Position numbers and translations under genes: made by a program
Origin: a bacterium
GTDB lineage: Bacteria > UBA9089 > UBA9088 > JAGUXG01
Direction of reading: 5' to 3'
DNA length: 37,932 nucleotides
NCBI GenBank assembly: GCA_043798435.1
Contig: JAZDOR010000047.1
Span: forward strand, 1-37,932
Shown here: positions 2,002 through 37,105 of the stretch, one piece after another
Layout: each line of letters starts with the position of its first letter
Numbering within the stretch: the stretch's first letter is position 1
The notes under the pieces: model-generated
Told to the model about the DNA's origin: nothing
Databases searched by the model: none
The model's input: the letters and a program-made list of their open reading frames with translations, nothing else

Positions 2002-2217
2002 GTAACTATTCAGGTAGTAAGAAGACAGAATTCAGAATACAGAATTCAGGAGTCAGAATGAGAACGCTTACATGTAGTGTTCAAAACTTTGGGGTATGGT
2101 GATTCTTCAAAACTATTGATACTACTAAAAAAGGTCAGTAAATTATTAGAATCTTACTCTGATATTATTCTGAATTCTGAATTCTGACTCCTGAATTCTA
2201 ACTATCTAAACAGTTAC
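2002..2217. mobile_element. GTAA-ended MITE-like element carrying an AGAATTC palindrome
   Basis: Ends GTAACTATTCAGGTAG / CTATCTAAACAGTTAC; perfect 8-bp direct repeat AGATTTTT at 1994-2001 and 2218-2225. Confidence 0.88.
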
Positions 2218-2231
2218 AGATTTTTAACATA

Positions 2232-2636
2232 CTAAAAAAATATCTCAATCGCCTGATAGGGACATGCCTTCAGGCAGAGTCCACAGGCTGTGCAGTGCTC
2301 AGAGTCAAATGAGACCTTCATACTCTTTCTGTCAACAACCAATGCAGAAAATGGACAGATGGGAATGCAGGCTGTGCAATGGATGCATCTTTCTTCATTC
2401 CATCTCACATCAGAAGCTAAAGGTTGCACTACTACACCTAAATCTTTGAGGTAGGTCATACCCTTGTTTAGATTCTCATTCTCACCGCTTATCTCTACCA
2501 CCAACCTCCCTTCTTCATTCGGCTCTACCTTTGCACTCAGGATATTCACCATCAGGTCATATTCCTTAATCAAATGATAGGTGATTGGCTTTTCTACTGT
2601 CTCTTTCAGAAAGGTCAGGACCACTCGTTTTTTCAT
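2232..2636 (-). CDS. NIL domain + 2x[4Fe-4S] ferredoxin (MA1822/MJ0099-like)
   Basis: N-terminal NIL (YDLMVNILSAKV) plus two CxxCxxCxxxCP motifs; adjacent to a DUF39 gene. Confidence 0.88.
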   Translation of the reverse strand: MKKRVVLTFLKETVEKPITYHLIKEYDLMVNILSAKVEPNEEGRLVVEISGENENLNKGMTYLKDLGVVVQPLASDVRWNEERCIHCTACIPICPFSALVVDRKSMKVSFDSEHCTACGLCLKACPYQAIEIFF

Positions 2637-2656
2637 TATTTCTTACCTCCTACAGA

Positions 2657-2806
2657 ATAAGCGTTCAGGCAGTGTAACAAAAGGAGATAAGGAGATAAAA
2701 GGGATATGGAGATATTTTTAAGGGAAAAGAAAATAATTCATCTCCCCATCCCCCATATCTTCTTATCCCCCTTCTTACACTTTTTTTGTATAGCCTGAAC
2801 GGTTAC
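2657..2806. mobile_element. GTAAG-type MITE shell with GGAGATA arms and an empty centre
   Basis: (A)TAAGCGTTCAGGC-AGTGTAA...TTACAC...GCCTGAACGGTTAC with GGAGATAAGGAGATA / TATCTTCTTATCCCC arms. No clean TSD. Confidence 0.75.
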
Positions 2807-2813
2807 CAAATAA

Positions 2814-4007
2814 CTATGGTCTTTCATTTAGTGGCTTTATAGCGATATTAGCATCAATAGAAGGCACTCTTTGCACAGGTTCTGTCAAGAGAAAATCTCC
2901 TTTTAGTATCCATTCCTTCAGAATATTGGCTATCTCCTTTGCCTTGACATAACTTGAAAGCCCACCTGTAGGCACCTCTTTGCCATTTATCTTTATCTTT
3001 CCACTCTTCAACTGGGCATAGTTTACCTCAGTCAAAACATCTGGTTCCCTTTCTGGATAGGCATGGCTGTAATCTACCACTGGTGCAAATATCTCTTCAT
3101 CTCGAACTGCTGTATATCTACATATCTCCTCATTGAGCATAGGGATGGGAACACCAATCCCTACAGCAAGACTCACCCCATAACCTGTTATACTTGCACC
3201 TCGCAGCCAGGCGGGTTTCATCTGCTTCAGGTCTCCAATTACCGCTAAGGTTCCCCCAGACCTCTTTGGCACCTGGTTTTCTCCTCTAATGACATTTGGA
3301 TTGTGCTGTGTTCCCTGCCACGCAACATAGCCTATTCCACCACCCAAGAATATCCTTGTGCCGATGCCAATAATAGAATAGAGCGGGTCATTCAATAAAG
3401 GAGAAAGCTGTCCAGCACTGGAATAATTAGCGTTGCCAAGTCTTGGCAGTAAAGCCCCCAAATAGGTGTAAATAATCTTATCAGAAAGGTTTACGGCAAC
3501 ATTGTAGTTTTGATAAGCATTTCTGGGATTAAATAGCACAGCTTCATTTAGGTCAGAGATGTTAATCAAAGTGGTAAGCTCTTTTTTTGGATAGCAGTCT
3601 GTGCCATAAGAGACCACCTTCATTCTTATATCCTTTCCTGAAACCAGTTCTTCAATTATATGACCCCCACCATACCTGAATGCACCAGGATAGACAGTAT
3701 TAGCTGGATCATCCTCTGGGAGTTCTGTCGCCCCAAGATAGACATCTACTGCCGCTAAACCTGCATAAGCTGGAACATTGTTCAGCCATGCCTTCTGTGC
3801 CTTTATCCTTGGTTTAGAATGACCAAAGTTGAAATAGACTCCAGATGAGCACATGGGACCAAAGGTAGCCGTAGTTACAACATCAACCTCCTTTGCCACT
3901 TGAGACACACCCTTCTTATCCACCAGATCAATAATCTCTTCTGCTGTGACAACTACTGCTTCACCCTTCTTAATCTTCTCATTGATCTCTGCGATCGTCT
4001 TAGCCAT
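2814..4007 (-). CDS. DUF39 homocysteine biosynthesis protein (L-aspartate semialdehyde sulfurtransferase, MA1821/MJ0100-like; no CBS tail)
   Basis: KTIAEINEKIKKGEAVVVTAEE, VDVVTTATFGPMCSSG, YGTDCYP, NPRNAYQNY, SSAGQLSPLLNDP. Confidence 0.9.
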   Translation of the reverse strand: MAKTIAEINEKIKKGEAVVVTAEEIIDLVDKKGVSQVAKEVDVVTTATFGPMCSSGVYFNFGHSKPRIKAQKAWLNNVPAYAGLAAVDVYLGATELPEDDPANTVYPGAFRYGGGHIIEELVSGKDIRMKVVSYGTDCYPKKELTTLINISDLNEAVLFNPRNAYQNYNVAVNLSDKIIYTYLGALLPRLGNANYSSAGQLSPLLNDPLYSIIGIGTRIFLGGGIGYVAWQGTQHNPNVIRGENQVPKRSGGTLAVIGDLKQMKPAWLRGASITGYGVSLAVGIGVPIPMLNEEICRYTAVRDEEIFAPVVDYSHAYPEREPDVLTEVNYAQLKSGKIKINGKEVPTGGLSSYVKAKEIANILKEWILKGDFLLTEPVQRVPSIDANIAIKPLNERP

Positions 4008-4032
4008 ATCTAAACCTCCAGTATAAGTAACG

Positions 4033-5298
4033 CTATTTTAATAAATCGTTTAGTTCACAAGAAAGCAGGGCTGATTTATTGAGTATAATCTCTTCTTTCT
4101 GGTTGAAATTATCTGCGGTCATTCTGATGAGCTTGGTTGTAATGGTGTCACCGAGCATTATGCGATTCGTTTTTTTGAGATAGTTCTCGGTTTTCTGATA
4201 AAAAAGAGTAACATATTGCATCAATTTATCCTCCGGAGCAGGTTCCCAGCTGGTTTTTAATTCAACCAAGTCTTTAATTTTCTCGTCTACGGGTATTGAC
4301 AAATCTCCGTCTTGACGATCAATCCAGTAGTCACTGATAGAGTAAATAATTCTCACTGATTTTCCATTCTCTGTGTTGTATCGGCATATGAAAGAAAAAA
4401 TATCAGTGTGGAAGTCCTGATGGACATCCACATTTTTCAATGTAGTTACTGTATGAATCTTATATTCATCAAGAAGACGAAAATAGCTTTCTCGCCAATT
4501 TTTAAGCCAGTCTTCAATAAATGTCTGATTTATAAAAAGAGGTGTGAGATCCTGTTTAAGATTCGTGTCGTTCACCTTATTCATTTGTAAGGTAAGTTTG
4601 TCAAAAAGGGCTCGCTGGTCTTTTGCATCAACCCCTTTTGCAATAAGATATTCAAGATCAATCGCCACTTTTTTTCCCATATACCAGAGAAGATCATAGA
4701 TATCACGCCCCTTTTCTTCATATACCTCTTTACCTACTCCACGCTGTCCACGCAGGAAAATAGCAGCAATCTTGCTCGCCATAAGCGTAGGCATATTGTA
4801 GGTCTTAATCACAAATGAAAGCTGTCCGTAATTCATTGGTATTCGCTCAGTTACCGTTTTTGGAGCAGTAAAGTGATTGAGATCAATTTTGACATGCACC
4901 TGCTTTGACGGATGGCTGATACCTAACTCATCACATATATGGAAATTTAGACGCAATCCCCTGTTGTCTACTTTTATAGTAAGCAGTTTTGAATCGGTAC
5001 CATAGGTGCTTAAAAAATGTGCCTCTATTTCTTCTTTCAGCTCATTCAGAAATGCATCTGATATGGGGTGTGCAACTTCAAAATCTAAATCAACCGACAT
5101 ACGATCAAGCCCGTGGCATATGCGGAGCGCAGAACCGCCATACATAGTCCAATTGCTGTAATCTGGGTGATGATAAATAAAGTTAAGAACATAAAACTGT
5201 AACTCCTCTTTGAGCACATTACGCTGTCTCTCGACATCTACCTTCCCGGAAATGTCATCAAGCTTTCTTTTGAGTGCTATAAGAATCTGATTATTCAT
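4033..5298 (-). CDS. AbiEii-family nucleotidyltransferase toxin with C-terminal extension
   Basis: MYGGSALRICHGLDRMSVDLDF, ASKIAAIFLR, KGRDIYDLLWY; overlaps the upstream antitoxin gene. Confidence 0.88.
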   Translation of the reverse strand: MNNQILIALKRKLDDISGKVDVERQRNVLKEELQFYVLNFIYHHPDYSNWTMYGGSALRICHGLDRMSVDLDFEVAHPISDAFLNELKEEIEAHFLSTYGTDSKLLTIKVDNRGLRLNFHICDELGISHPSKQVHVKIDLNHFTAPKTVTERIPMNYGQLSFVIKTYNMPTLMASKIAAIFLRGQRGVGKEVYEEKGRDIYDLLWYMGKKVAIDLEYLIAKGVDAKDQRALFDKLTLQMNKVNDTNLKQDLTPLFINQTFIEDWLKNWRESYFRLLDEYKIHTVTTLKNVDVHQDFHTDIFSFICRYNTENGKSVRIIYSISDYWIDRQDGDLSIPVDEKIKDLVELKTSWEPAPEDKLMQYVTLFYQKTENYLKKTNRIMLGDTITTKLIRMTADNFNQKEEIILNKSALLSCELNDLLK

Positions 5299-5902
5299 AG
5301 TTTTTTATCATCATATAAAATTTTTCCTGCTCTTTCTCGCTCATCTCATCAATGTCAATACGTAACTCTGCAACCAGTGCTTTTATCTCCTCAAACTTTA
5401 TCCCACAAAATCGGTGTGTCTTGAAGTAAAGCAGATCGAAAAGTGCTTTTGCAGGAGATGCAATGAAGAAATCGAATCTCCCCATACCTAAAGAAAAATC
5501 TGAAAATAATTCTTTTTGAATAGATTGGTAAGAAAAATTACCTATCTTTGTCTTATACGCTCGGGTTACTTTTGGTGTAATTGACATTATTGTGTGTATT
5601 GCTTCAGTGGTCAGATCATAATATTGAAGAGCAGTCCACGAACTCACATATGACGGTGTGCGAAGGATATTAGCAAGATAGAATGAATAGGAGATGTCGC
5701 CTTTGTTTTTATTATAAAAATCAGCAGATACATACAATCCCTTTTTGATAGAGATGATTTCCTTGCGTTTTAATGACCGACTGATATAGGTATCAACTGT
5801 GGTGCTTTTAAGACCATACTGCTCGCTAAGCTGATATATAGCTTTCTTTTTGAAATATGGCTGAGATTTCAGTTGATTAAGTAATATCTCTCTGTATTTC
5901 AC
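5291..5902 (-). CDS. AbiEi-family antitoxin / transcriptional regulator
   Basis: N-terminal wHTH (IKKGLY), PSYVSSWTALQYYDL, IASPAKALFDLLY; translationally coupled to the AbiEii-like gene. Confidence 0.85.
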   Translation of the reverse strand: MKYREILLNQLKSQPYFKKKAIYQLSEQYGLKSTTVDTYISRSLKRKEIISIKKGLYVSADFYNKNKGDISYSFYLANILRTPSYVSSWTALQYYDLTTEAIHTIMSITPKVTRAYKTKIGNFSYQSIQKELFSDFSLGMGRFDFFIASPAKALFDLLYFKTHRFCGIKFEEIKALVAELRIDIDEMSEKEQEKFYMMIKNYE

Positions 5903-5943
5903 AATTGTGATGATATTGTATTAAATGTGAAATAAGATGTCAA
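5896..5943 (-). promoter_or_regulatory. sigma70-type promoter and candidate autoregulatory operator of the AbiE operon
   Basis: TTGACA (5943-5938), 17 bp, TACAAT (5920-5915); inverted repeat ATTTCACA...TGTGAAAT spans the -10 region. Confidence 0.65.
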
Positions 5944-5950
5944 GAAAAAT

Positions 5951-6041
5951 GTAACTACTCAGGTTGTCAAAGTTCAAGATTCATAGTTCATCGTTTAAGT
6001 CGCTTTCTGAAAACCGTGAAAGACTGAACCTGAATAGTTAC
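5951..6041. mobile_element. Short GTAA-ended MITE-like element with GTTCA-type arms
   Basis: GTAACTACTCAGGTT / AACCTGAATAGTTAC. No TSD. The right end contains the pscS stop codon. Confidence 0.75.
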
Positions 6042-7741: not shown

Positions 7742-7758
7742 CTATCTTTGTTATCTTC

Positions 7759-7943
7759 GTAAGCGTTCAGCCTATTAATCAAAGAGTGTAAGAAGGGGGA
7801 TAAGAAGATAATGGGGAAACGAGAGAGAATCCAGAATACAGAATCCAGAATTCAGAATATTAAATTCTGTATTCTGACTCCTGAATTCTGACTTCTATTA
7901 ACCTTTCCCATATCCCCTTTTTTTACACTACCTGAACGGTTAC
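7759..7943. mobile_element. GTAAG-type MITE shell (GGAGATA arms) with nested AGAATTC palindrome (7826..7896)
   Basis: GTAAGCGTTCAG / CTGAACGGTTAC; flanks TTATCTTC (7751-7758) and TTATCTCC (7944-7951), a 7/8 match. Confidence 0.85.
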
Positions 7944-8076
7944 TTATCTCCCCAAATAAAGATATTTTACTAACTTTGAGCAATTTCATCAACAACTATC
8001 TATTCCTCATTTTGTATGTGTTTAGCTGTTTTGCAACCTCAGTATTTATAAGGGGTTATACACCATTATTTTCTGA

Positions 8077-8134: not shown

Positions 8135-8138
8135 GGAG

Positions 8139-8813: not shown

Positions 8814-8815
8814 CT

Positions 8816-10172: not shown

Positions 10173-10319
10173 GTAAGCGTTCAGCCGTCAGCCATCAGCA
10201 GTCAGCAAAGACCATAAAATCAAGACAAAAGAGGTTTTCCTAACTTCACGGCTTCCTGCTCTTTGTGCTGTAATACCTTGTAAAAGCTGAAAGCTGTCCG
10301 CTGATAGCTGAACGCTTAC
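10173..10319. mobile_element. GTAAG-type MITE with TCAGC-heptamer arms
   Basis: Perfect 13-bp TIR GTAAGCGTTCAGC / GCTGAACGCTTAC; perfect TSD AAGACTAC (10165-10172, 10320-10327). Confidence 0.92.
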
Positions 10320-11308: not shown

Positions 11309-12400
11309 ATGGTCAAAAGGATTGGTGTTTCAACAGGTGGAGGGGATTGCCCAGGGCTTAATGCAGTCATTCGAGCAGTGGTAAAGAGTGCCCTGAATCT
11401 TGGTTGGGAGGTTATTGGCATCAGAAGAGGGTTTGAGGGGCTTATAGATATTAAAAAGTCAAAGCTACTCAAATCAAAGGATATTGCTGGAATACTGCAT
11501 ATAGGCGGCACAATCCTTGGCACAACAAACAGGGGCGACCCATTCAAGATGGAGGTTAAGGTTGGAAGAAAGACTGTTGTAACCGATGTTTCCGACAAAG
11601 TAATAGATGGATTCAGGAGATTAAGGCTTGATGCCTTAGTTATGATTGGTGGTGATGGAACCCTTACGATTGGCAAAAAACTTTATGATATGGGGCTACC
11701 CATTGTTGGTGTGCCAAAGACAATAGACAATGACCTTTCAGGAACAGTGATGACCTTTGGTTTTGATACGGCTGTCTCCACGGCTACTGAGGCTTTAGAT
11801 AAACTCCATTCTACAGCAGAAAGCCATCAGAGGGTGATGGTGGTTGAGGTGATGGGCAGGTATGCGGGCTGGATTGCCTTACATTCTGGGATTGCCGGGG
11901 GTGCCGATGTCATTCTTATTCCAGAAATTCCCTTTGATATGGACAGTGTCTGTGAGAAGGTAAGGGATAGATACAGGATACAGAAGAATTTCTGTATCAT
12001 TGTGGCAGCAGAGGGGGCAAAGTTAAAGGGAGGCGGTCTATTCACCAAAGAGTGCAAGGATAAAGGCAGGGTAGAGCCACTCTTGGGTGGAATTGCCGAG
12101 AATGTAGCTAAGGAGGTAGGAAGATTAACAGGAAAAGAGACAAGGTCCCTGGTCTTAGGACACCTTCAGAGGGGAGGACATCCTACAACCTTTGACAGGC
12201 TTCTTGCCACAAGATTTGGCTCTGCGGCTGTAAGGCTGATTCAAGAAGGAAAGTTCGGGAATATGGTTGCCCTTCATCCACCGAATATTACCGCAGTTCC
12301 TTTGAGCGAGGCTATTGGCAAGATGAAGACTGTTCCCCTTGATTCTGATGTAATTCAATCAGCAAAGTCTCTGGGCATATCCTTTGGAGACGGAGGGTAA
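11309..12400 (+). CDS. pfkA: 6-phosphofructokinase (PfkA family)
   Basis: TGGGDCPGLNA, IGGDGT, PKTIDNDL, VEVMGR, LGHLQRGG. Confidence 0.93.
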   Translation: MVKRIGVSTGGGDCPGLNAVIRAVVKSALNLGWEVIGIRRGFEGLIDIKKSKLLKSKDIAGILHIGGTILGTTNRGDPFKMEVKVGRKTVVTDVSDKVIDGFRRLRLDALVMIGGDGTLTIGKKLYDMGLPIVGVPKTIDNDLSGTVMTFGFDTAVSTATEALDKLHSTAESHQRVMVVEVMGRYAGWIALHSGIAGGADVILIPEIPFDMDSVCEKVRDRYRIQKNFCIIVAAEGAKLKGGGLFTKECKDKGRVEPLLGGIAENVAKEVGRLTGKETRSLVLGHLQRGGHPTTFDRLLATRFGSAAVRLIQEGKFGNMVALHPPNITAVPLSEAIGKMKTVPLDSDVIQSAKSLGISFGDGG

Positions 12401-12767
12401 TTACTCAAAATCTTAGGGAGAATATTTAGCCACAGAGCTCACAGAGAGCACAGAGGAATTAGCCACGAATGCACACGAATTAACACTAATAATTCATTCG
12501 TGCCTATTCGTAATATTCGTGTTTATTCGTGGTTTATTCATCTTTCTTTGTGACCTCTAAAGTTCTCTGTGGCGTAACTATTTACCCAAGTGAAGCAGAA
12601 GACAATTGTTCACCTTTAGGGCACCGCTGAGGACGCAGAGAATTTACAAAATTTTTAAGTTTTTATTTCTCTGTGCTCTCTGCGAGCTCTGCGGTTAATC
12701 TCTTCTTCAGATGAGTAAAGTGTTACTCTGTGGCTTTTCCACAATCCTAAATTTTATGAGTAGTTAC
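12397..12767. mobile_element. Composite GTAA-ended MITE: CACAGAG palindrome, nested CACGAAT palindrome and a nested second MITE
   Basis: GTAATTACTCAAAA / TTTTATGAGTAGTTAC; perfect TSD GACGGAGG (12389-12396, 12768-12775). Confidence 0.9.
12574..12726. mobile_element. Nested GTAAC MITE (CGCAGAG arms)
   Basis: GTAACTATTTACCCAAGTGAAG / CTTCAGATGAGTAAAGTGTTAC; perfect TSD TCTGTGGC (12566-12573, 12727-12734); closely similar inverted copy at 24202..24351. Confidence 0.9.
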
Positions 12768-14174: not shown

Positions 14175-14233
14175 AAACCGTATAATAGCAATTATTTACC
14201 AAAAGTGAAGTGCAAGAAAAGAATATGAGCTGC

Positions 14234-14328
14234 AGTCATTAGTCAATAGTCATTAGTAGGAGAAATTTTTTACTGATGACAAGTGACCAGTAACTAATGA
14301 CCATAAATTTTGTGTCTCTGTGGCTAAA
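14234..14328. repeat. AGTCATT-heptamer palindrome plus an orphan CACAGAG right arm
   Basis: AGTCATTAGTCAATAGTCATTAGT ... ACTGATGACAAGTGACCAGTAACTAATGAC, then TGTGTCTCTGTGGCTAAA. Confidence 0.75.
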
Positions 14329-14333
14329 TTTAT

Positions 14334-16061: not shown

Positions 16062-16107
16062 CTAAGAGTAGGCTAAGGATGAAAATCAAAAATAAAAAAT
16101 CAAATAT

Positions 16108-16184
16108 TTAGACACTGATTTACACAGATGAACACAGATAATTTTTAAATTTTATCAGTGAAAATCAGTGTTAATCTGTGTCAA
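16108..16184. repeat. CACAGAT-armed palindrome
   Basis: TTAGACACTGATTTACACAGATGAACACAGAT ... ATCAGTGAAAATCAGTGTTAATCTGTGTCAA. Confidence 0.85.
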
Positions 16185-16215
16185 AAAAATTTTATTTATT
16201 TTTTGCCATCTCAAT

Positions 16216-18769: not shown

Positions 18770-18791
18770 ACAATAAATTTACCATTCAAAA

Positions 18792-18922
18792 GACAGAGAA
18801 TACAGAGAAATTCAATGTAAAATTAGCAATGCAAAACTATCAATGCAAATTTTTGAAATGCTAATTGCTAATTTTGCATTTTACATTGAGTTATCTCCTA
18901 ATAACTCTGTGCCTCTGTGGTG
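18792..18922. repeat. CACAGAG palindrome with nested AATGCAA-heptamer palindrome
   Basis: GACAGAGAATACAGAGA [AATTCAATGTAAAATTAGCAATGCAAAA ... TTGCTAATTTTGCATTTTACATTGAGTT] CTCTGTGCCTCTGTGG. Confidence 0.8.
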
Positions 18923-18932
18923 AATATTTGTG

Positions 18933-20150: not shown

Positions 20151-20162
20151 CTGTTAATAGTG

Positions 20163-20255
20163 TATGGTTTATGGTTTATGGTTTATAGTTTATGGTTTAT
20201 GGTTTATGGTTTATAGTTTATAGACTATCAACTATAAACTATCAACTATAGACTA
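20163..20255. repeat. TTTATGG/TTTATAG-heptamer palindrome
   Basis: About 9 units of TTTAT(G/A)G followed by ACTATCAACTATAAACTATCAACTATAGACTAT, which includes the DUF1015 stop codon. Confidence 0.85.
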
Positions 20256-21400
20256 TACATCACCACCCCAGAGAAGGGCTTGGGAAAAAAGTAGGTTGCC
20301 TTTCCTGGCATATAAAGAGAGGCTCTTGCTACATCCATCACACCTTGAAACCCTGGTGGTCTGAGCAAAAACCCACAATAGAATTCGCCGCTTTCCACAC
20401 GAGAGAAGACCTCTCTGGCATCTTTGGTATATGCCACATCCTTCTCTTCTTCCTGACTATCAAAGATTACATTATGAAGTATCGCCACATCAACTTTTTT
20501 CAAAGGCTCAGTAAGATTAATCTCCTCTCCTTGTTTTAGGGTTAATATGTATGCCCCGTCCTTTTTTACCATACCAAAAATGCCTATGCCTTTTCTTTCT
20601 GAAAGAATGTTGAGAAGCTCCTCCTTTTTCACCTTCTCTCTTGAAAAGTCAGCAAGTCTCTCCTCTAATAAAGTATCTTTGAGGAGTCTATGTGCCGAAA
20701 GAATAATAAACCCTCCCATATCCTTTTCTAAAAGCATAGCCATCACGGGCTTTTTCAAGGCAAGGGCTGTCTCGTATCTATGATGTCCATCAGCAATAAA
20801 TAGCTGTTTCTTTGAAAGCTCACGAGAAAGCTTCTCCATATCCTCTTTAATCTGCCATAGCCTGCAAAATAGCCCCTTTTTATATTCAAACTGGATTTTG
20901 GGCGGACCAGATGGAGTAAGCCATCTTCCAATCTTTTTCTCTTCATCGCAGTAGACAAGAAATATGGGGCAGAAGTTTGTCTGGGTTTTCTTCAATAGCT
21001 CCAATTGATCCTTCTTTGGTGCGGCAAGTGTTCTTTCGTGAGGAAGAATCGTTTTTGCATAATATGGCTCAGCCTCAATAGACGCAATAATACCTGACAT
21101 TACCCCTTTTTCCCATTCCTGTTGATAGAGATAGAAAGAGGGGCTTTCCTCCTCTATCAAAACACCCTCTTTCTTCCATTTTGTCTGGAATTCCGCGGCA
21201 CGCGTATATCTATTATTCTCCTCTGTATCCTCTGGATAACCCTTTCCAAGTATGAGCCTGATGACATTACATTGGTGAGCCTGATAGAAAGCCTCTTGCT
21301 CTACACAAGAGATTATATCATAAGGAGGAGCCACAACAGAAGAGATATCAACCTTCTCCTGATTATAAAAAACGCCTCTAAACGGATGTATCTTTGCCAT
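20246..21400 (-). CDS. DUF1015-family protein
   Basis: IHPFRG, VAPPYDII, ILPHERTL, FIADGHHRYETAL, KATYFFPKPFSG. Confidence 0.9.
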   Translation of the reverse strand: MAKIHPFRGVFYNQEKVDISSVVAPPYDIISCVEQEAFYQAHQCNVIRLILGKGYPEDTEENNRYTRAAEFQTKWKKEGVLIEEESPSFYLYQQEWEKGVMSGIIASIEAEPYYAKTILPHERTLAAPKKDQLELLKKTQTNFCPIFLVYCDEEKKIGRWLTPSGPPKIQFEYKKGLFCRLWQIKEDMEKLSRELSKKQLFIADGHHRYETALALKKPVMAMLLEKDMGGFIILSAHRLLKDTLLEERLADFSREKVKKEELLNILSERKGIGIFGMVKKDGAYILTLKQGEEINLTEPLKKVDVAILHNVIFDSQEEEKDVAYTKDAREVFSRVESGEFYCGFLLRPPGFQGVMDVARASLYMPGKATYFFPKPFSGVVMYSL

Positions 21401-22515: not shown

Positions 22516-22669
22516 TATACCCAAACAAATCAGGCTTACCAAAAATTGTGTTCGTTTATGGTTCTGAGGTTCAAGGTTAGAGAATAAGAGGATTAACCGT
22601 GAACCTTGAACCCTTTAACCCCTGAACCTGAGTAGTTACTTTTTTGTAAACCAATTTCTTTTCGGTATA
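22516..22669. mobile_element. TA-duplicating MITE inserted in the terminal repeat of a GTAAC MITE
   Basis: TATACCCAAACAAATCAGG ... CCAATTTCTTTTCGGTATA; removing it with one TA restores CTTCAGATGGGTAAATAGTTAC; inverted copy at 27350..27510. Confidence 0.85.
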
Positions 22670-22981: not shown

Positions 22982-24172
22982 ATGTTAAACTGGCTTTATA
23001 ACCTTTTACTTCTCTTTTCAGCTATCCCATTTTTGCTCAAAAACTTCAGTCTGCAAAGGCTTGGTCTCTCTATTCCAAAGGTAAAGCCTGACATCTGGCT
23101 ACATATTGCCTCTATGGGAGAAATGGTCGGGGTTAAGCCGTTCCTTGATGAGGCAAGAAAATCAAACCTTTCCTTTGTCATCTCCTGTATGACCAAGACA
23201 GGTTATCAGACAGCAAAAGGGTTTAGAGAAGAGACATTCTATCTCCCCTTAGACTTCGGCTTCCTTATAAAAAGAACCATCAAAAAGCTTGAGCCAAAAA
23301 TGCTTATCATCTCTGAGACAGAGCTTTGGCCCAATCTGATAAGGTCTGCTAAAAAAATGGGCTGTTCGGTCGTCCTGATAAACGGAAGAATAACAGAAAA
23401 AAGCTACCGAAGGTATCAGCTACTCTCATCTTTGACAAAGGAGGTTCTCTCTTCTTTTGACCTTTTCCTTATGCAGTCGAGCCAAAATGCCGAGAGGATA
23501 AAAAAACTTGGCGCTTCTCCTGATAGGGTAAAGATCTCCGGAAATACAAAGTTTGATTGGTTGGCTTATGATCTCCCTTCTCTCAATATTGATTTTAGAG
23601 GTCTTCCTGTGGTAACATTCGGCTCTATCAGGGAGATGGAAGAGGAGGCTATCGTTTCTTGTTTTTCTAAGCTACGGCAAGCGAATCCGCAAGTAATTGG
23701 CATTATTGCCCCAAGGCACCTTGAAAGGGTAAAGGCAATCTCTGAAAGGCTGGTAGAAAAAAAGATTCCCTTTGTCAAAAGAACAGAGATGCCAACAGAA
23801 ATAGACCCAGGCTCTGTCCTCATTTTAGATACAATAGGTGAACTCAGGTCAGCCTATAAGTCTTCATCCCTTTCCTTTGTTGGAGGAACATTGGCAGACT
23901 ATGGTGGTCACAACCTTCTTGAGCCAGCCTTATTTGAAATACCTGTTCTCTTTGGCACTTATACCTCTCATTTTAAGGATGTAGCTATGGCGATGAAGAA
24001 GGAGAAAGCGGCAATTGAGGTGAGCAATGAAAAGGGGTTAGCAAAAAAGATGGTCTGGTTACTTTCTAATGAAGAAGAGCGACTTTTAATGGGAAAGAGA
24101 GCAAAAGAAGTGGCTCAAAAGTTTGTTGGTGCCTCAGCTCGGGTGTATCTTGAGATTAGTAAATATTTGTAA
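22982..24172 (+). CDS. waaA: 3-deoxy-D-manno-octulosonate (Kdo) transferase
   Basis: IWLHIASMGE, YLPLD, ETELWPNL, APRHLER, DTIGEL, GGHNLLEPA. Confidence 0.92.
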   Translation: MLNWLYNLLLLFSAIPFLLKNFSLQRLGLSIPKVKPDIWLHIASMGEMVGVKPFLDEARKSNLSFVISCMTKTGYQTAKGFREETFYLPLDFGFLIKRTIKKLEPKMLIISETELWPNLIRSAKKMGCSVVLINGRITEKSYRRYQLLSSLTKEVLSSFDLFLMQSSQNAERIKKLGASPDRVKISGNTKFDWLAYDLPSLNIDFRGLPVVTFGSIREMEEEAIVSCFSKLRQANPQVIGIIAPRHLERVKAISERLVEKKIPFVKRTEMPTEIDPGSVLILDTIGELRSAYKSSSLSFVGGTLADYGGHNLLEPALFEIPVLFGTYTSHFKDVAMAMKKEKAAIEVSNEKGLAKKMVWLLSNEEERLLMGKRAKEVAQKFVGASARVYLEISKYL

Positions 24173-24201
24173 CTATTCAGTTTAAGAAACCTCAGATTTT
24201 A

Positions 24202-24351
24202 GTAACACTTTACTCATCTGAAGAAGAAATTAACCGCAGAGCTCGCAGAGGGCACAGAGAAATAAAAACTTAAAATTTTGTAAATTCTCTGCGTTCTCAG
24301 CGTGCTCTGCGGTAAACAATTATCTTCTGCTTCACTTGGGTAAATGGTTAC
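24202..24351. mobile_element. GTAAC MITE (inverted copy of 12574..12726), 33 bp after an orphan GTAACTATTCAG end at 24169
   Basis: Perfect TSD AGATTTTA (24194-24201, 24352-24359). Confidence 0.9.
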
Positions 24352-25919: not shown

Positions 25920-26081
25920 TGTTTATATCTCCTTAATTATTATTTTCTTGTCGTTCGATCTTTCTTGCTTCATAATTCCTCCTATCTTAATATAGAATCT
26001 TTTGAAAAAAATTGATTGAGTTCTTCTATAAATACCTTTTTTGGAGCTGAACTATAAAGTTAAGAATATCATCCTTTAATT

Positions 26082-26175
26082 TTTCGTGTTTTCGCTCTTT
26101 CGAGGTTTCGTGATTATATTTTATTTCTCCAAAGTCTCTAAAAACTAATTTTACTTCAGGTAGCTAAAGTGTTAC
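26082..26175. mobile_element. Truncated GTAAC MITE (right part only)
   Basis: TTTCGTGTTTTCGCTCTTTCGAGGTTTCGTGAT arm, then CTTCAGGTAGCTAAAGTGTTAC; the dxr C-terminus and stop are read from this end. Confidence 0.6.
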
Positions 26176-27349: not shown

Positions 27350-27510
27350 TATACCGAAAAGAAATTGGTTTACAAAAAAGTAACTACTCAGGTTCAGGGG
27401 TTAAAGGGTTCAAGGTTCACGGTTAATCCTCTTATTCTCTAACCTTGAACCGTGAACCTCAGAACCATAAACGAACATAATTTTTTGCAAACCTGATTTG
27501 TTTGGGTATA
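27350..27510. mobile_element. TA-duplicating MITE inserted in an AATGCAA palindrome (27341..~27577)
   Basis: Removing it with one TA restores AATTCAATGTAAAATTAGCAATGCAAAA, identical to the uninterrupted copy at ~18809. Confidence 0.88.
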
Positions 27511-27609
27511 AAATTAGCAATGCAAAATTATCATCTTAAAATGATAATTGCTAATTTTGCATTTTGCAATGAGTTATTCTCTGTATCCCTAAAGGTAAAT
27601 AGCTATTTA

Positions 27610-28512: not shown

Positions 28513-28515
28513 CGT

Positions 28516-28682
28516 ATGAGTTTTGAGTTATGAGTTTTGAGTTATGAGTTTTGAGTTATGAGTTTTGAGTTATGAGTGATGAGTTATGAGTTTTGAGTTT
28601 TGAGTTTTGAGTTTTGAGTTTTGAGTTTTGAGTTTTGAGTTATTTTATTAAACTCTAAACTCTGAACTCTACACTCTGAACT
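28516..28682. repeat. GAGTTTT/GAGTTAT heptamer palindrome with an expanded left arm
   Basis: About 18 heptamer units, then AAACTCTAAACTCTGAACTCTACACTCTGAACT. Confidence 0.9.
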
Positions 28683-29004: not shown

Positions 29005-29017
29005 ATTTCTAAAAGAA

Positions 29018-29092
29018 GTGATCGGTTATCGGTAATCAGTAATCGGTAAGGGAAACAATTACCGGTAACCGATTACCCGATAACCTGATTAC
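29018..29092. repeat. GTAATCG-heptamer palindrome
   Basis: GTGATCGGTTATCGGTAATCAGTAATCGGTAA ... TTACCGGTAACCGATTACCCGATAACCTGATTAC. Confidence 0.88.
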
Positions 29093-29099
29093 CATTTTC

Positions 29100-29270
29100 C
29101 TATTTTTTCTTCGTCTTCTCTATCATGGAAGGAGAGAGGAGAATGCTTATCGGCACAAGCACAAGCCCAGCAACAATGAAGAGCGGACCAAGAAATAGCC
29201 TCCTCAGATAGAGAAGGAGAAACCCTAAAGCATATACCCCAACTGCAATGGCGAATATCTTCTTGTTCAT
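29100..29270 (-). CDS. 56-aa two-helix membrane protein; not in the ORF track
   Basis: MNKKIFAIAVGVYALGFLLLYLRRLFLGPLFIVAGLVLVPISILLSPSMIEKTKKK; TATAAT 7 nt upstream of the ATG. Confidence 0.65.
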   Translation of the reverse strand: MNKKIFAIAVGVYALGFLLLYLRRLFLGPLFIVAGLVLVPISILLSPSMIEKTKKK

Positions 29271-29318: not shown

Positions 29319-29481
29319 ATAAGCGTTCAGGTAGTGTAAGAAAAGGAGAGGACAGAGATTATGGAGATAAGGGGATAAAATTTTGAATTAAAAATTAAGA
29401 ATTAAAAATGAATTATCTCCATATCCCCATTATCTCCTTATCCCCTTTCTTACACCTCTGATACATAGCCTGAACTGTTAC
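29319..29481. mobile_element. GTAAG-type MITE shell (GGAGATA arms)
   Basis: (A)TAAGCGTTCAGGTAGTGTAAG ... CTTACAC ... GCCTGAACTGTTAC; same family as 2657 and 7759; no TSD. Confidence 0.78.
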
Positions 29482-32163: not shown

Positions 32164-32171
32164 TTTTTTTG

Positions 32172-32381
32172 GTAAGTGTTCAAGTAGTATAAAATAAGGA
32201 GAAATGGGGAAAGGGGAGAATTGAAGAAATAGGACGCAGATTAACGCTGATTTACAAGATAGGAATTAAATAAGAATCTGCGCTAATCCTAAAAAATCCT
32301 GAAAATCTGCGTTCTAATTCTTCCCCATCTTCTCCTTTTCTCCTTTCTTACGCATCTTAAAATATAGCCAGGAACGGTTAC
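32172..32381. mobile_element. Degenerate GTAAG-type shell with nested GACGCAGAT palindrome (32230..32316)
   Basis: GTAAGTGTTCAAGTAG ... GGAACGGTTAC; GGAGAAATGGGG / CCCCATCTTCTCC arms; no TSD. Confidence 0.7.
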
Positions 32382-32384
32382 AAT

Positions 32385-32786
32385 TTAAGCCATCATTGAC
32401 AGACGAAAATTGCCCTCAGACCCTTTTATGTTCTTTTGTACCCGCAGGATGAGGTCCTCGGGCTGAAAGGGCTTGGTAATATAATCATCCGCACCCTCTT
32501 TCTTGGCTCTATTCCTGTCCTCTTGCTCAGCCTTGGCTGTAATAATAGCTATAGGAATATTGCTTGTCTTCTTGCAGGCTTTAAGCCTCTGACAGACCTG
32601 CCAACCATCCATCACAGGCATCATAATGTCAAGGAGAATGAGATGAGGCATCTGCTGATAAGCCTTGTCTATCCCCTCCTTTCCATCATAAGCCTCAATG
32701 ACATCATAGCCCTCTGACTCAAGAAGAGCCTTTAAGATATCAACAATGTCATGGTCATCATCCACAATCAAAATCTTCTTTGCCAT
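32385..32786 (-). CDS. Single-domain response regulator (REC)
   Basis: ILIVDDD, LILLDIMMP, ITAK, DDYITKPF. Confidence 0.92.
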   Translation of the reverse strand: MAKKILIVDDDHDIVDILKALLESEGYDVIEAYDGKEGIDKAYQQMPHLILLDIMMPVMDGWQVCQRLKACKKTSNIPIAIITAKAEQEDRNRAKKEGADDYITKPFQPEDLILRVQKNIKGSEGNFRLSMMA

Positions 32787-32792
32787 TTTTTT

Positions 32793-32963
32793 TTAGACAC
32801 AGATTACACTGATGAAGAACCAATAAAGAATAAATATTTTGACACAGATTACACTGATGGACACTGATAAAGAGATATTATAAATATAAAGAAAGATATT
32901 TAATCAGTGAGTATCTGTGTTAATCAGTGTCTAAAATATTTCTTCATTTATAATCAGTGTCTG
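32793..32963. repeat. CACAGAT palindrome nested in a second CACAGAT palindrome
   Basis: Outer TTAGACACAGATTACACTGATGAAG ... CTTCATTTATAATCAGTGTCTGA; inner TTGACACAGATTACACTGATGGACACTGAT ... ATCAGTGAGTATCTGTGTTAATCAGTGTCTAA. Confidence 0.85.
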
Positions 32964-32971
32964 ATATTTTA

Positions 32972-35095
32972 TCATATCTCTTTCTCTTTGTCAATCTCCT
33001 TGTTTTTGGAAATAGTAAAGGTAAATGTGCTTCCCTCGCCTGATTTTGAGGAGACCCAGATTCTACCTCCGAGGGCTTTGACTAATTCAGAGACGATAGC
33101 AAGCCCTAAACCTGTTCCACTATATTTGCGGGTGCTTGTGTAGTCTGCCTGATAGAACCTTTCAAAGATTTTCTCCTGCTCCTCCCTGGCTATGCCAATC
33201 CCTGTATCAGAGACGGAGAGCTCTATCTCTTTCTCTGTTTCCTTTGCCCCAATGGTTACATCTCCTCCAGAAGGCGTGAACTTGACGGCATTATCAAGGA
33301 GCCTGTAAAAGATATCGCTTATCTTTTGGGAATCAGAGATTACAGTCGATAATCTTTGGGGAAGGTCAAGCTCTATGTTCAGCCCTTTATGATACACCAG
33401 CAAGCCAAAGCTCCTTGTCACTTCATCAATCACCTTCTTTAGATAGACCTTCTCTGCTTTAACCTCATAAACCTTGCCACTCTCAATAGCAGCCAGATTG
33501 AGAATATCTGTAATGATGGAGTTTAGCTTAAACCCCTTCTCCTCTATCTTCTTTATACCCTCTTTCTGACTCTTAGTCAGCCTTCCGAGAGTCTCTCTCT
33601 TCAAAAGCCCGAGCTGAGCAATGATGAAGGTAAGGGGAGTCTTCAGCTCATGGGAGACGATATTCAGGAAGTCAGACTTGGCTACATTTGCCTTTTCTAA
33701 TTCTTTTGCCCTGGCCTTTAGAGAAGTATGCAGTCTTGAATTCTCCAAAGAGATCGCCAGCTCTTTGGCTATGGTATCTAAGAAACTTATCTCATCATAG
33801 GTATAGCCACCGTCTCCCTTCTTCTCTCCGAGGTTCAATAACCCCATCAGCTCATCTCTATGAATTAAAGGTGTGACAAGCATGGCATTTGTCTTCTTAA
33901 AATCGCTTTGTATCTCTGTTTTTGAGCCAGAGAAGTCAGGGTCTTTATCTAACTCCTCATAGAATATCACTTGACGTTTTTTAGAAAGCCACTGAATAAG
34001 TGGGGCATCTGCTGATATAAACACATTTTCCTCGCCCTGGCCTACCAAGTATTTGAGGATATAACTATTGTTCACAGGAAGCATACAGGAGATAAACTCT
34101 GGATGCAGGGTCTCTTTAATCTGGTTCATGAGATATGGAATAAGCATGTCCGGGTCATAATTTGTGGCAATTTCATGGGTAATCTTCTTAGAGAGAGAGA
34201 ATAGCTCCTGAGTCTGGCGATAGAAGAGCCTGTCAACGATGAGCTGAACCCTCTCCCTGAGAAGATTGAAGATGAAGACGAAGATGACAATAGTTATAAC
34301 CCTGGCCAGGGTTGCTTGAAGATGCAAGGTATTCTCAAAGAGAAAGATGGAGGAAAACCATATAGCTGTAACTAAGGCAGTGAGCATAGTGTAGGCAAGA
34401 CCTGGCCTGATTAACACATTGATGTCCATCAATCGATAGCGGACAATGGCAAGGGCTGTCATACACACAAAGGAAAGTTCAGCAATATTACCAATGGGAA
34501 ATACCATTTGTTTCCCGGAAGCTAAGAGGAAGTTTGATATACCGCCAGCTATAGATATAGATAGACCCATTAAGAGGTATTTCAGTTGGTTCTTCTCTAA
34601 GTAGGATGTCGCTATTCTAAACCTTTTAATAAGCAGAAAGGCACCCATTAGGGTCAAGCCATAAAAGAATAAGAGGAAGAGCAAGGGCATAGGTGGATTA
34701 CAAAAGACTGGAAAGTATCCCTTCTTTAGAGGTATAACATCCTTTATAAGCAACCCGGATAAAGACAAGAGGCCAAAGATGAAACTTATAATGTAGCCTA
34801 TAGGAATCAGCCTTTTAATTCTTGTTTTGGATTCATTTAAGAAGCTCACCACAAAATGGAAGAAGGTGGAAGGGATGAAGATAACACCTATGAGGAGTAC
34901 CCTTGCCCAGACTAAGGCAAAATGAGGCTCTTTGGCAAAACAGAGCCCAAAGTCCATAAGGTTCCAGATAGAGGTACAGATTACCCAATAACAGAAGGTT
35001 CTGTTTGCCTCTTTACTACTATCCCTGCTCAGGACAAAGATGCCCAGGAATAGATTGAGCAGGGCAATCACAAGAAGGGTCAATCCATAGAACAT
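32972..35095 (-). CDS. Multi-TM (7TM-type) sensor histidine kinase with GAF domain
   Basis: Hydrophobic N-terminus ending AIVRYRLMDI, GAF, VSHELKTPL, LLDNAVKFT, GTGLGL. Confidence 0.9.
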   Translation of the reverse strand: MFYGLTLLVIALLNLFLGIFVLSRDSSKEANRTFCYWVICTSIWNLMDFGLCFAKEPHFALVWARVLLIGVIFIPSTFFHFVVSFLNESKTRIKRLIPIGYIISFIFGLLSLSGLLIKDVIPLKKGYFPVFCNPPMPLLFLLFFYGLTLMGAFLLIKRFRIATSYLEKNQLKYLLMGLSISIAGGISNFLLASGKQMVFPIGNIAELSFVCMTALAIVRYRLMDINVLIRPGLAYTMLTALVTAIWFSSIFLFENTLHLQATLARVITIVIFVFIFNLLRERVQLIVDRLFYRQTQELFSLSKKITHEIATNYDPDMLIPYLMNQIKETLHPEFISCMLPVNNSYILKYLVGQGEENVFISADAPLIQWLSKKRQVIFYEELDKDPDFSGSKTEIQSDFKKTNAMLVTPLIHRDELMGLLNLGEKKGDGGYTYDEISFLDTIAKELAISLENSRLHTSLKARAKELEKANVAKSDFLNIVSHELKTPLTFIIAQLGLLKRETLGRLTKSQKEGIKKIEEKGFKLNSIITDILNLAAIESGKVYEVKAEKVYLKKVIDEVTRSFGLLVYHKGLNIELDLPQRLSTVISDSQKISDIFYRLLDNAVKFTPSGGDVTIGAKETEKEIELSVSDTGIGIAREEQEKIFERFYQADYTSTRKYSGTGLGLAIVSELVKALGGRIWVSSKSGEGSTFTFTISKNKEIDKEKEI

Positions 35096-35517
35096 CTAAT
35101 CTCCTCCACCCTGTTTTTTATCCTATTTAATGTATCGGGGCTGAGTCTCATTAAAGACCTGATAGCAATCAGTTCTATTATTCTTCTAATCAAAGGAATC
35201 TTCAATTCAACCTGGTGAATCAAAGAAAGACTTGTCTTGCCAGATTGGTCGCTGAATTTATACTCTGCTTTCAGTCCCTTTACCAGCCCTGAAAGTTGCT
35301 CGGTGACCATTCTTTTGTTAATTCTATCAATGAGGATGGAGGTCTTCAATTTAACCTTCATTTTCCATTCAATCAATAGCCTATCTTCCTCCTGGCTGAT
35401 TATCGTCATATTCCTGTGGGAAGGAAGAAACTCTGGCCACCTGGCTACATCTGTTACTATCTTGAAGACCTCATCAACAGGTTTATCAATTAAGATTCTA
35501 TTTTCCAGATGAATCAT
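35080..35517 (-). CDS. SRPBCC / polyketide cyclase-like ligand-binding protein
   Basis: IDKPVDEVFKIVTDVARWPEFLP. Confidence 0.8.
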   Translation of the reverse strand: MIHLENRILIDKPVDEVFKIVTDVARWPEFLPSHRNMTIISQEEDRLLIEWKMKVKLKTSILIDRINKRMVTEQLSGLVKGLKAEYKFSDQSGKTSLSLIHQVELKIPLIRRIIELIAIRSLMRLSPDTLNRIKNRVEEIRCSMD

Positions 35518-36846
35518 CTAAAACCTATAGCTTCCAGTGACACCAAGGGCATCTCCATTCTTCTCATACTCCACGCCATTCAAGGTCTCCTTGCCAGATA
35601 AATTCACATAAGCAAAATCAAGGACAAGATTTCCTTTTCTATAACCTGTTCCAAGGGTGAGGAATCTGCAATCTACATCAATCAGCTTAGTGATATCTAC
35701 GCCATCTGCAGGTACAGGGGATGGTGAGAAATAGAACCCGGCTCTCAATGACCAAACCTCATATGGTCTGTATTCAAAACCCATCCTGAATCTGTCTGTA
35801 TTGCTCCAGTTAAGACTTTTGTCTCTATCCTGAAGGAACTTAGTCGTGCCACTCCCGGTATCCCGCTCAAAGTCTATATCCTCCTCCATACTGCTCCAGT
35901 ATGTCCTTGCCAAATCACAGACTATGGTTATCTTTGGGGTCAGTCTGTAAGCTGTTCCAAGATCTAAGGTAGCTGGGTAAGAAAAATTTTGGGTGTAGTT
36001 GCTCTTTTCAGTTCCTGTCGCTGCTCCTAACATCTGACCTTGAAGACTCCCCTCTCCCTCTCCTTCTAATGAAAGGAGACTGCCGCTCCTGGCCACACCT
36101 CCGATAGAGAGCTTATCTGATGGTTTAAGCAAAAAGCCTACTACCCCTTCAAGACCTGTTCCATCACCAGAGACCTTATTAACAAAGTCATAGTTATAGA
36201 AAGACGCAGTAGCAGTAGAATAGCTCTTCTTTGCCTCTACCTCAAATTTGCTATAGAGGAGATTGAGACCTGCACCAATAGAGAGGTCATCTGTTACCTC
36301 CTTGGCCAGAGATATATTCCCCACAGATACAGATAACTGGGTATGGTATGAAGCATTTATATCAGCACCCATAGCATCCTTCATCCCATCCTTCCAGTCT
36401 ATGGCATTCCCATTCGGAGTGTAGAGACCTCCAGCCAAAGTCCATCCGCTCCGTTTCTGCCACCCACCAAGAGAAGGAAGGATAGCAGATGTCTCTATCT
36501 CCTTTTTGGCAAACCTTGTTGGCTCACCAGGATAGCCAGGAAGAAAACCGCCCATATCAGGTCCATAGAGACGAAAAAAGAGTGTTTTATAGTCATCACC
36601 ATTAGCCACAGAATTCCCATCCTCACCCTTTAGCGATACATACTCTAAATACCCACCTGCCCCTTTCTCAGAAACCTGGGAAAGCCCTGCGGGATTCCAG
36701 TATATAGCTGTCCAGTCATCAGCTAAGCCAACGAATGCCCCGCCCATTCCAATAGCCCTTGCTCCCAATCCACCAAACTCATAACCTCCACCAAGCACAA
36801 GACCTGGCAGACCCAACACCATTAACAAAACTAAACCTTTCTTCAT
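35518..36846 (-). CDS. OmpP1/FadL-family outer-membrane transporter
   Basis: Signal peptide MKKGLVLL, GARAIGMGGAFVGLADDWTAIYWNPAGL, C-terminal SYRF; GGAGGT RBS before 36846. Confidence 0.9.
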   Translation of the reverse strand: MKKGLVLLMVLGLPGLVLGGGYEFGGLGARAIGMGGAFVGLADDWTAIYWNPAGLSQVSEKGAGGYLEYVSLKGEDGNSVANGDDYKTLFFRLYGPDMGGFLPGYPGEPTRFAKKEIETSAILPSLGGWQKRSGWTLAGGLYTPNGNAIDWKDGMKDAMGADINASYHTQLSVSVGNISLAKEVTDDLSIGAGLNLLYSKFEVEAKKSYSTATASFYNYDFVNKVSGDGTGLEGVVGFLLKPSDKLSIGGVARSGSLLSLEGEGEGSLQGQMLGAATGTEKSNYTQNFSYPATLDLGTAYRLTPKITIVCDLARTYWSSMEEDIDFERDTGSGTTKFLQDRDKSLNWSNTDRFRMGFEYRPYEVWSLRAGFYFSPSPVPADGVDITKLIDVDCRFLTLGTGYRKGNLVLDFAYVNLSGKETLNGVEYEKNGDALGVTGSYRF

Positions 36847-36913
36847 TTTCAAATACCTCCTTTTTATAATCAACATATCCTTTTACCCAACCCCTCAATC
36901 AAGACCTTCTCTT

Positions 36914-37105
36914 GTATTTACTCAAAATTTTGGGGAATTAACCAAAAAATTAGACACTGATCTACTATAGATGAACACTGAAGAGATATTTAGACACTGA
37001 TTTGCACAGATGAACACTGATTAAAATAAAGGAAGAAATCTGTGTGAATCAGTGTAAATCTGTGTCAAAAAAATTTTAGTCCTCCTCAAAATTATGAGCA
37101 ATTAC
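36914..37105. mobile_element. GTAA-family MITE carrying CACAGAT palindrome(s)
   Basis: GTATTTACTCAAAATTTTG / CAAAATTATGAGCAATTAC; perfect TSD CTTCTCTT (36906-36913, 37106-37113). Confidence 0.88.

Follow-up and report, generated by a model that had tools for sequence, protein, structure and literature searches.

Insertion sequences (ISs) of the IS66 family typically possess ends beginning with GTAA and generate an 8-bp duplication of their target, and transposition in this family is, to our knowledge, poorly characterized. MITEs (miniature inverted-repeat transposable elements), which in bacteria include Correia/NEMIS, RUP, Nezha and MITEPsy, are small and non-coding, carry terminal inverted repeats (TIRs) and target-site duplications (TSDs), occur in many, mostly intergenic copies and depend on a transposase acting in trans. 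Some of these names appear in the accessible parts of PMC10969869 and PMC3189936; the accessible text of the former, a 2024 review of prokaryotic MITEs, contains no occurrence of 'IS66', and the MITEs tabulated in the accessible part of the latter are assigned to 'IS5?' or to unknown. Within the searchable literature, which is accessible in part and leaves ISfinder, TnPedia and subscription papers outside, no IS66-derived MITE has been described. Here we analyzed a set of short GTAA...TTAC elements in a bacterial contig of 37,932 nucleotides (JAZDOR010000047.1, our contig C135; 'the window' denotes this whole stretch), which an initial annotation, made from the sequence alone, had proposed to be a MITE superfamily. 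The elements resemble the bacterial MITEs in all of the features named above and differ from them in the parent family, here IS66: they are very probably foldback MITEs that share TIRs of about 22 bp with single-gene, ISBst12-type ISs of the IS66 family, with an IS66 transposase as the mover.

The evidence for transposition starts with the flanking repeats. The assembly that contains the window (2.23 Mb in 233 contigs, 84% complete, labeled G000) was scanned throughout for GTAA...TTAC pairs 60-700 bp apart, and the 8-mers directly outside the two tips were compared. They were identical at 83 of the 20,448 pairs, an approximately 200-fold excess over the 0.41 expected from base composition, and another 48 pairs had flanks with one mismatch. 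When the right flank was shifted by 1-3 bases only 0-5 exact matches were obtained, and the median TSD count for all 256 tetramer/reverse-complement pairs was 1. The duplication is 8 bp and not 9 bp long, because inclusion of the next base on the outside would lengthen the repeat at only 11 and 2 of the 83 elements. Chance is excluded as the source of the flanking repeats; the genome-wide TSD frequency, on which the initial annotation had made its proposal depend, lies far above chance, and the MITE reading stands. Two further tetramer pairs with an excess of matches were rejected as transposon signals: GAAT...ATTC (311 matches at 14 places) stems from tandem heptamer arrays, and GGGG...CCCC (261 matches at 5 places) from CRISPR arrays on contigs C4 and C158. 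These CRISPR-like arrays are located at the contig starts (C4:33-821 and C158:42-825), and their repeats hold ...ACGCTTGTGGGGAACAC / GGGGATGAACCG.

The 83 elements with a TSD range from 111 to 372 bp, are non-coding and are bounded by TIRs, the longer ones being nested pairs. At least four TIR subtypes had been suggested, and these proved to be real; typed by the first 12 nt, they are named here A (GTAAGCGTTCAG / GTAACCGTTCAG), B (GTAACACTTTAC / GTAACTATTTAC), C (GTAAYTACTCA) and D (GTAACTAYTCAG). All four have GTAA in common, are T-rich at positions 8-10 and share the 8-bp TSD. The end pairs comprise A-A in 40 elements, B-B in 32, C-C in six and D-D and A-D in one each, while three elements have one unclassified end, and type B is asymmetric in that 32 of 33 MITEs combine one 'CAC' with one 'CTA' end (positions 6-8). 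The interiors consist mostly of two inverted arms of tandem 'words' of 7-10 nt, which vary among copies (CAGAATT, NNNTCAG, CACAGAG, ACACTGA, TAGCAAT), and as single strands 78 of the 83 elements fold far better than their shuffled versions (median -28.8 vs -11.8 kcal/mol; 15 mononucleotide shuffles per element). The duplicated 8-mers are rich in A+T (73% vs 59% in the genome) and weakly palindromic (R-A-A-W-T-T-T-B). After removal of the element in silico, 31 of the 83 sites fell into a stop-to-stop frame 150 aa or more in length, compared to 2,378 of 3,000 random sites, and several of these 31 are situated at extreme gene ends. With one mismatch allowed, the assembly holds 802 ends (A 334, B 267, C 110, D 91), and BLAST with the 83 elements detected 732 regions amounting to 97,320 bp, or 4.4% of the assembly.

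The initial annotation considered the IS family not assignable from the ends; however, it can be assigned to IS66, specifically to the single-ORF ISBst12 type. The sole match to DDE_Tnp_IS66 (PF03050) in the assembly (C211:4-150; 48.8 bits, cut-off 23.1) lies at a contig start and corresponds to the final 98 codons of an open frame, uninterrupted by stops; it shares 91% identity with P0001 over residues 375-472 of the latter, a protein of 472 aa with zf-IS66 (35.6 bits, cut-off 27.3) and DDE_Tnp_IS66 (129.5 bits) domains. The frame terminates 4 nt ahead of ...CTTCAGATGAGTAAATAGTTAC (C211:301), which read from outside is GTAACTATTTACTCATCTGAAG, the type-B 'CTA' end, and is followed by unrelated sequence with a 351-aa ORF. 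P0001 is encoded by an element of 1,514 bp (L116:85-1598) that contains this one ORF, all others being 80 aa or shorter, between a left inverted repeat (IRL) GTAACACTTTACCCAACTGAAG and a right inverted repeat (IRR) GTAACTATTTACCCATCTGAAG, which differ at positions 6-8 (CAC vs CTA); an 80%-identical copy of 1,517 bp (L013) has the same ends. Over 22 and 23 positions, the type-B consensus ends of the MITEs agree with these IS ends at 20 and 21, respectively, beyond which the sequences diverge completely, and since homology stops after about 22-23 nt the MITEs carry only the ends recognized by the transposase. DDE_Tnp_IS66 matches were found in 16 of 30 related genomes (1.3-4.7 Mb), and among the related single-ORF ISs an exact 8-bp TSD was present at 7 of the 16 genome loci for which both flanks were available; these seven are on contigs of at least 28 kb. 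Elements with the other end types were also found in genomes of the same phylum:

L002: 1,737 bp, ends GTAACTACTCAGG (types C/D), intact 541-aa gene with IS66 domain.
L003: 1,505 bp, ends GTAACCGTTCAC, 476 aa with IS66-domain match.
L004: 1,563 bp, ends GTAACCGTTCAGGTA (type A), enclosing an IS66-domain match with two stop codons.
L005: 1,214 bp, ends GTAACTATTCAGCA (type D), IS66-domain match with one stop codon.

The closest described relative is the ISBst12 group, represented by ISDge4, for which the accessible text gives the TIRs GTGACTACTCAGCA / GTAACTGCTCAGCA, a 449-aa transposase and 8-bp direct repeats (PMC12898284). GTAA-type tips and the 8-bp duplication are shared with this group, the related ISs have its single zf-IS66 + DDE_Tnp_IS66 transposase and a length of about 1.5 kb, and the ISDge4 TIRs, as given in the accessible part of that source, closely resemble the C/D-type ends described here. 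Unlike the group, the window elements are gene-less, have about 22 nt per end in common with it and contain foldback word arms. The three-gene IS66 elements (IS66, IS679, ISPa75, ISPsy43) likewise have inverted repeats beginning GTAAGCG / GTAACCG, and those of ISPa75 and ISPsy43, GTAAGCGTCCGG / GTAACCGTCCGGGCA in the accessible part of PMC12888890, resemble the type-A ends GTAAGCGTTCAGG / GTAACCGTTCAGG. In contrast to these elements, the related full-length ones here have one ORF within about 1.5 kb, and TnpB_IS66 (PF05717) had no match in the 84%-complete assembly. By their sequences, the partner elements combine the domain, ends, TSD and single ORF of the ISBst12 group, an intact copy in the present assembly being the one feature not found.

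We infer that an IS66 transposase of the kind encoded on C211 moves the elements. In such a scheme the DDE transposase (zf-IS66 + DDE_Tnp_IS66, about 472 aa) would be made from a full-length IS elsewhere in the genome, would recognize the GTAA-tipped ends and would insert the element at cuts staggered by 8 bp, preferentially at A+T-rich, weakly palindromic R-A-A-W-T-T-T-B sites, and repair of the gaps would produce the 8-bp duplication.

Several observations weigh against this interpretation. The assembly of this genome contains no full-length transposase gene but just the final 98 codons of one, at a contig edge, and types A, C and D are without any transposase here, their partners occurring in same-phylum genomes only. 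A search for GTAA...TTAC pairs with TSDs enclosing an ORF, as had been recommended, was run on pairs 701-5,000 bp apart; it yielded exact flanks at 5 of 95,772 pairs, none of them with similar ends, and hence no autonomous copy in the assembly, and tblastn with P0001, P0006 and P0044 returned only C211. None of L002-L005 has an intact TSD and two of the four contain stop codons, and an exact TSD is absent from 35 of 41 metagenome loci (present at 6) and likewise from L013 and L116. As only about 22-23 nt are common to MITE and IS, an origin by internal deletion is no more than conceivable. In addition, only 372 of the 802 ends are paired, and of the 186 same-type pairs only 78 have an exact TSD (104 with at most one mismatch); the unpaired ends and the many imperfect TSDs indicate that much of the population is old or rearranged. 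However, because the assembly is fragmented, the missing intact IS copy is not evidence of its absence, and the missing TSDs on short metagenome contigs may result from chimeric assembly at repeats. In L013, which lacks a TSD at its tips, the left flank TTGAATATTG (611-618) recurs about 80 bp past the right end (2220-2227), which may reflect a later insertion or deletion beside the IS.

In the window, extra copies were found by an end-motif scan and by BLAST of the genome-wide copies. The features detected are as follows, with a strand given only where one was assigned:

2002-2217: 216-bp foldback MITE, type D/A, ends GTAACTATTCAGGTAG / GTAACTGTTTAGATAG, arms of CAGAATT-type heptamers; TSD AGATTTTT at 1994-2001 and 2218-2225; fold z -3.7.
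2657-2806: 150-bp type-A MITE, left tip mutated (ATAAGCGTTCAGG), right end GTAACCGTTCAGG; no TSD found, flanks differing at 5 of 8 positions.
5951-6041: 91-bp mini-element, type D, ends GTAACTACTCAGG / GTAACTATTCAGG; no TSD.
7759-7943: 185-bp type-A MITE, ends GTAAGCGTTCAG / GTAACCGTTCAGG; TSD TTATCTTC / TTATCTCC, matching at 7 of 8 positions.
10173-10319: 147-bp type-A MITE, ends GTAAGCGTTCAGC (13 nt, perfect), arms of NNNTCAG heptamers; TSD AAGACTAC; fold z -5.4.
12397-12767: 371-bp type-C MITE, ends GTAATTACTCAAAAT / GTAACTACTCATAAAAT; TSD GACGGAGG.
12574-12726, minus strand: 153-bp type-B MITE nested in the preceding element, IRR-like end GTAACTATTTAC on the left and IRL-like end GTAACACTTTAC on the right; TSD TCTGTGGC.
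22516-22639, minus strand: C/D-type element end GTAACTACTCAGGTTCAGGGG, within a 161-nt stretch that recurs in inverted orientation at 27350-27510.
24169-24193, plus strand: orphan type-D end GTAACTATTCAGTTT, directly adjoining the next element.
24202-24351, plus strand: 150-bp type-B MITE, IRL-like end GTAACACTTTACTCATCTGAAG and IRR-like end GTAACCATTTACCCAAGTGAAG; TSD AGATTTTA; fold z -7.8.
26048-26175, minus strand: partial type-B element with GTAACACTTTAGC at 26175 as its only recognizable end.
27380-27600, plus strand: element starting GTAACTACTCAGGTTCAGGGG, the inverted twin of 22516-22639, in the dxr/nadA spacer.
29319-29481: 163-bp type-A MITE, tip mutated (ATAAGCGTTCAGGTAGTGTAAG), right end GTAACAGTTCAGG; no TSD.
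32172-32381: 210-bp decayed type-A MITE, ends GTAAGTGTTCAAG / GTAACCGTTCCTGG; no TSD.
36914-37105: 192-bp type-C MITE, left tip GTATTTACTCAAAATTTTGGGG, right end GTAATTGCTCATAATTTTGAGG; TSD CTTCTCTT, exact.
37748-37932, plus strand: type-C left end GTAACTACTCATAAAATTTAG, running off the contig; the assembly breaks within the element.

All seven elements originally reported with 8-bp flanking repeats were recovered by direct reading at their positions. Six of them have the reported GTAA tips, while the left tip of 36914-37105 is GTAT, and an exact TSD on a GTAA tip was found for 2002-2217, 10173-10319, 12397-12767, 12574-12726 and 24202-24351. The count of about 12 copies plus orphan ends agrees with the 11 two-ended elements (starts 2002, 2657, 5951, 7759, 10173, 12397, 12574, 24202, 29319, 32172 and 36914), four of which lack a TSD, and the five single ends (22639, 24169, 26175, 27380 and 37748) recorded here. 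The copy number behind the 'very high density' noted initially is therefore correct, but the window is not exceptional within its own genome, as it contains 17 MITE-like regions in 37.9 kb compared to 732 in 2,229 kb. No transposase was detected among the 36 window ORFs scanned with Pfam, consistent with the earlier view that none is present; the 36 come from a list of 48 ORFs (at least 100 aa), of which the remaining 12 are embedded in antisense orientation in longer ORFs.

Comparison with two genomes of the same genus, G001 and G002, which share about 76-91% DNA identity with this genome across syntenic genes, points to movement of the elements. At 10173-10319 the spacer in G001 is uninterrupted and contains a single AAGACGGT, where the window reads AAGACTAC-MITE-AAGACTAC, and at 12397-12767 G002 lacks the element and reads GACGAGGG-TTAATA. 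Likewise, the elements at 2002, 2657 and 32172 are absent from the orthologous sites in G001, with 17 bp in place of the last. The dxr/nadA spacer is empty in G002, carries a type-B MITE of its own in G001 (TSD CGGCATTT) and contains a C/D-type element in the window. Taken together, the empty sites at five window elements and the independent insertion in G001 suggest that these sequences have moved, as judged from the aligned sites. The MITE at 12397, the clearest example of an insertion at an extreme gene end, was inserted one codon ahead of the stop of the phosphofructokinase (PFK) gene; because the GTAA of the element supplies a TAA stop, and GGG replaces GGT, both encoding Gly, the PFK protein is unchanged. 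The element at 12574-12726 is nested in 12397-12767, and as both are flanked by a TSD of their own, they record two successive insertions. Elsewhere in the assembly (C100:8147-8518) a type-A MITE is nested in a type-B MITE, the reverse of the B-in-C order in the window. The two orders of nesting indicate that the families were active over overlapping periods. Cores common to different end families were considered and rejected, as most cross-type matches represent nested insertions; one weak core match, between type B and type A (74%), was observed. The original interpretation, namely that the elements are non-coding, have TIRs and an 8-bp TSD of fixed length and are mobilized in trans by a DDE transposase, is supported by the TSD excess, the empty orthologous sites, the nested insertions and the lack of a transposase in the scanned window ORFs. 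The elements are short, non-coding and dispersed, possess TIRs, a fixed TSD and the ends of autonomous elements and bear signs of movement, and thus qualify as MITEs by every defining feature examined.

The alternative that fares best is that the elements are fossils of a past IS66 spread, now immobile in a genome that has lost its working transposase, a possibility to be taken seriously although we consider it the less likely one. The 98-codon transposase fragment as the only assembled piece, the 82 of 186 same-type pairs that differ at two or more TSD positions, the mutated tips and missing TSDs at 2657, 29319 and 32172 and the stop codons in the same-phylum ISs L004 and L005 would all fit such a loss. 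However, the 78 pairs that have kept a perfect TSD, the differences in insertions among same-genus genomes with 80-90% DNA identity and the 101-nt core of 12574-12726, which is 100% identical to that of C127:6900-7052, argue against it. Moreover, the 98 codons are free of stops and are placed where assemblers break multi-copy sequence, and 127 of the 466 contig ends, including that of the window itself, fall within these repeats.

It is also unlikely, in our estimation, that one IS66-type transposase, the type-B enzyme of C211, moves all four end types, even though a single IS66 piece was found in the assembly and GTAA, the T-rich positions 8-10 and the 8-bp TSD are common to all ends. Such an enzyme would be difficult to reconcile with the 78 same-type pairs observed against one A-D pair and with the separate ISs that carry type A, D and C/D ends in related genomes. 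The distribution of the ends points in the same direction. With one mismatch allowed and the reversed pattern as control, type-B ends numbered 173 in this genome, 110 and 71 in the same-genus genomes, 0-40 in each of the other same-phylum genomes and 0 in six genomes outside the phylum, and type-A ends numbered 180 here and 52 and 5 in the same-genus genomes, with maxima of 536 (G017) and 457 (G022) among the other same-phylum genomes, and 0-1 outside. The reversed pattern gave 0 matches for type B and 0-2 per genome for type A, and since the counts outside the phylum are at this control level they represent background. G017 has 536 A and 15 B ends, and G002 has 5 A and 71 B ends; such independent variation of A and B numbers among genomes argues for separate partner transposases. 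To judge by pairing and copy number, end types A-D behave as separate families, and each of them probably needs its own cognate transposase.

We regard it as similarly doubtful that the foldback word interiors constitute a separate self-propagating module that was merely captured by IS66-type ends, which, if true, would imply a second mechanism seeding hairpin arrays genome-wide. In favor of it, arrays without TIRs at 1033-1214, 18781-18929, 28513-28681, 29013-29111 and 32790-32969 are absent from the corresponding G001 or G002 spacers, different MITE families have different words in the same architecture, and of the 808 arrays with period 7, the commonest period in the genome, only 279 are located in MITE-like regions. 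The resemblance of the 18781 array to a decayed type-B end, and nesting as the source of most between-family core similarity, weigh against it. Further hairpin word arrays without GTAA ends or TSD were noted at 14190-14330, 16095-16197 and 20153-20262, with words of 7-14 nt. The array at 28513-28681 comprises about nine copies of a 14-mer between nadA and the PRA-CH gene, which abut each other in G001 and G002.

ISs of the ISL3, IS1595, IS1 and IS256 families also produce duplications of about 8 bp, and the initial annotation had named IS1 and IS1595 for comparison. A mover from one of these families is very improbable. Nine ISL3-domain matches were found in the assembly, the best with 63 bits, but all are riddled with stop codons, and the remnants at C222:33091-33507, C94:2-432, C136:6749-7018, C13:4-258 and C58:3340-3468 terminate in ...TATCCACAGAGAAAGCCAGTAGAACC and not in GTAA. 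DDE_Tnp_IS1 (PF03400), DDE_Tnp_IS1595 (PF12762) and the IS256 domain Transposase_mut each had 0 matches in the 84%-complete assembly, and the IS66 fragment runs straight into a MITE-type end. Even more remote is the idea of host-encoded palindromes (REP-like sequences, terminators or protein-binding sites) with incidental flanks, which would account for the folding of 78 of the 83 elements and their avoidance of coding sequence, but not for the roughly 200-fold excess of exact in-register flanks, the empty sister-genome sites with one target copy, the nested insertions with their own TSDs or the ends identical to those of transposase-bearing ISs. Cyanobacterial STRR or Nezha-type elements, a first guess from the heptamers, were dropped: the related genomes measure 1.3-4.7 Mb, the closest named homologue of the housekeeping gene product Dxr is labeled Candidatus Desantisbacteria (86% identity, 66% of the query covered), and those of the transposases are labeled Candidatus Omnitrophica.

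The set of IS66-type MITE families is real, well documented and ordinary in kind, and its value lies in annotation rather than in surprise: sequences that make up 4.4% of this assembly, with hundreds of ends per genome across the candidate phylum, are now tied to a transposase family. As contigs break at these repeats, the MITE load practically limits assembly of the lineage. Four non-mixing end families with recognizable partner ISs, in addition, form a natural data set on the end positions that set transposase specificity.

Some features of the window concern the surroundings of the elements. The inverted duplication of 161 nt (22516-22669 / 27350-27510; 93% identity) comprises a MITE end and about 30 nt of flank and brackets 4.7 kb with a Kdo-transferase gene, a type-B MITE, a truncated AMP-binding gene, a CBS gene and dxr. 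Since the inverted repeat continues about 30 nt past the element tips at 22639 and 27380, it represents a duplicated segment, and inversion by transposition at these tips was ruled out; the duplication itself could promote inversion of the bracketed segment. Within that segment, the ORF at 24399-25241 matches only positions 280-380 of 384 of the AMP-binding enzyme profile, plus AMP-binding_C, and is probably the remnant of a gene truncated at its 5' end, judging from this partial profile match. Finally, 4033-5902 contains a gene for an AbiEii-type nucleotidyltransferase toxin (421 aa) and a 203-aa upstream partner without a Pfam match; as this block and the adjacent 5951-6041 mini-element correspond to about 60 bp in G001, the block represents an inserted or deleted toxin-antitoxin module.

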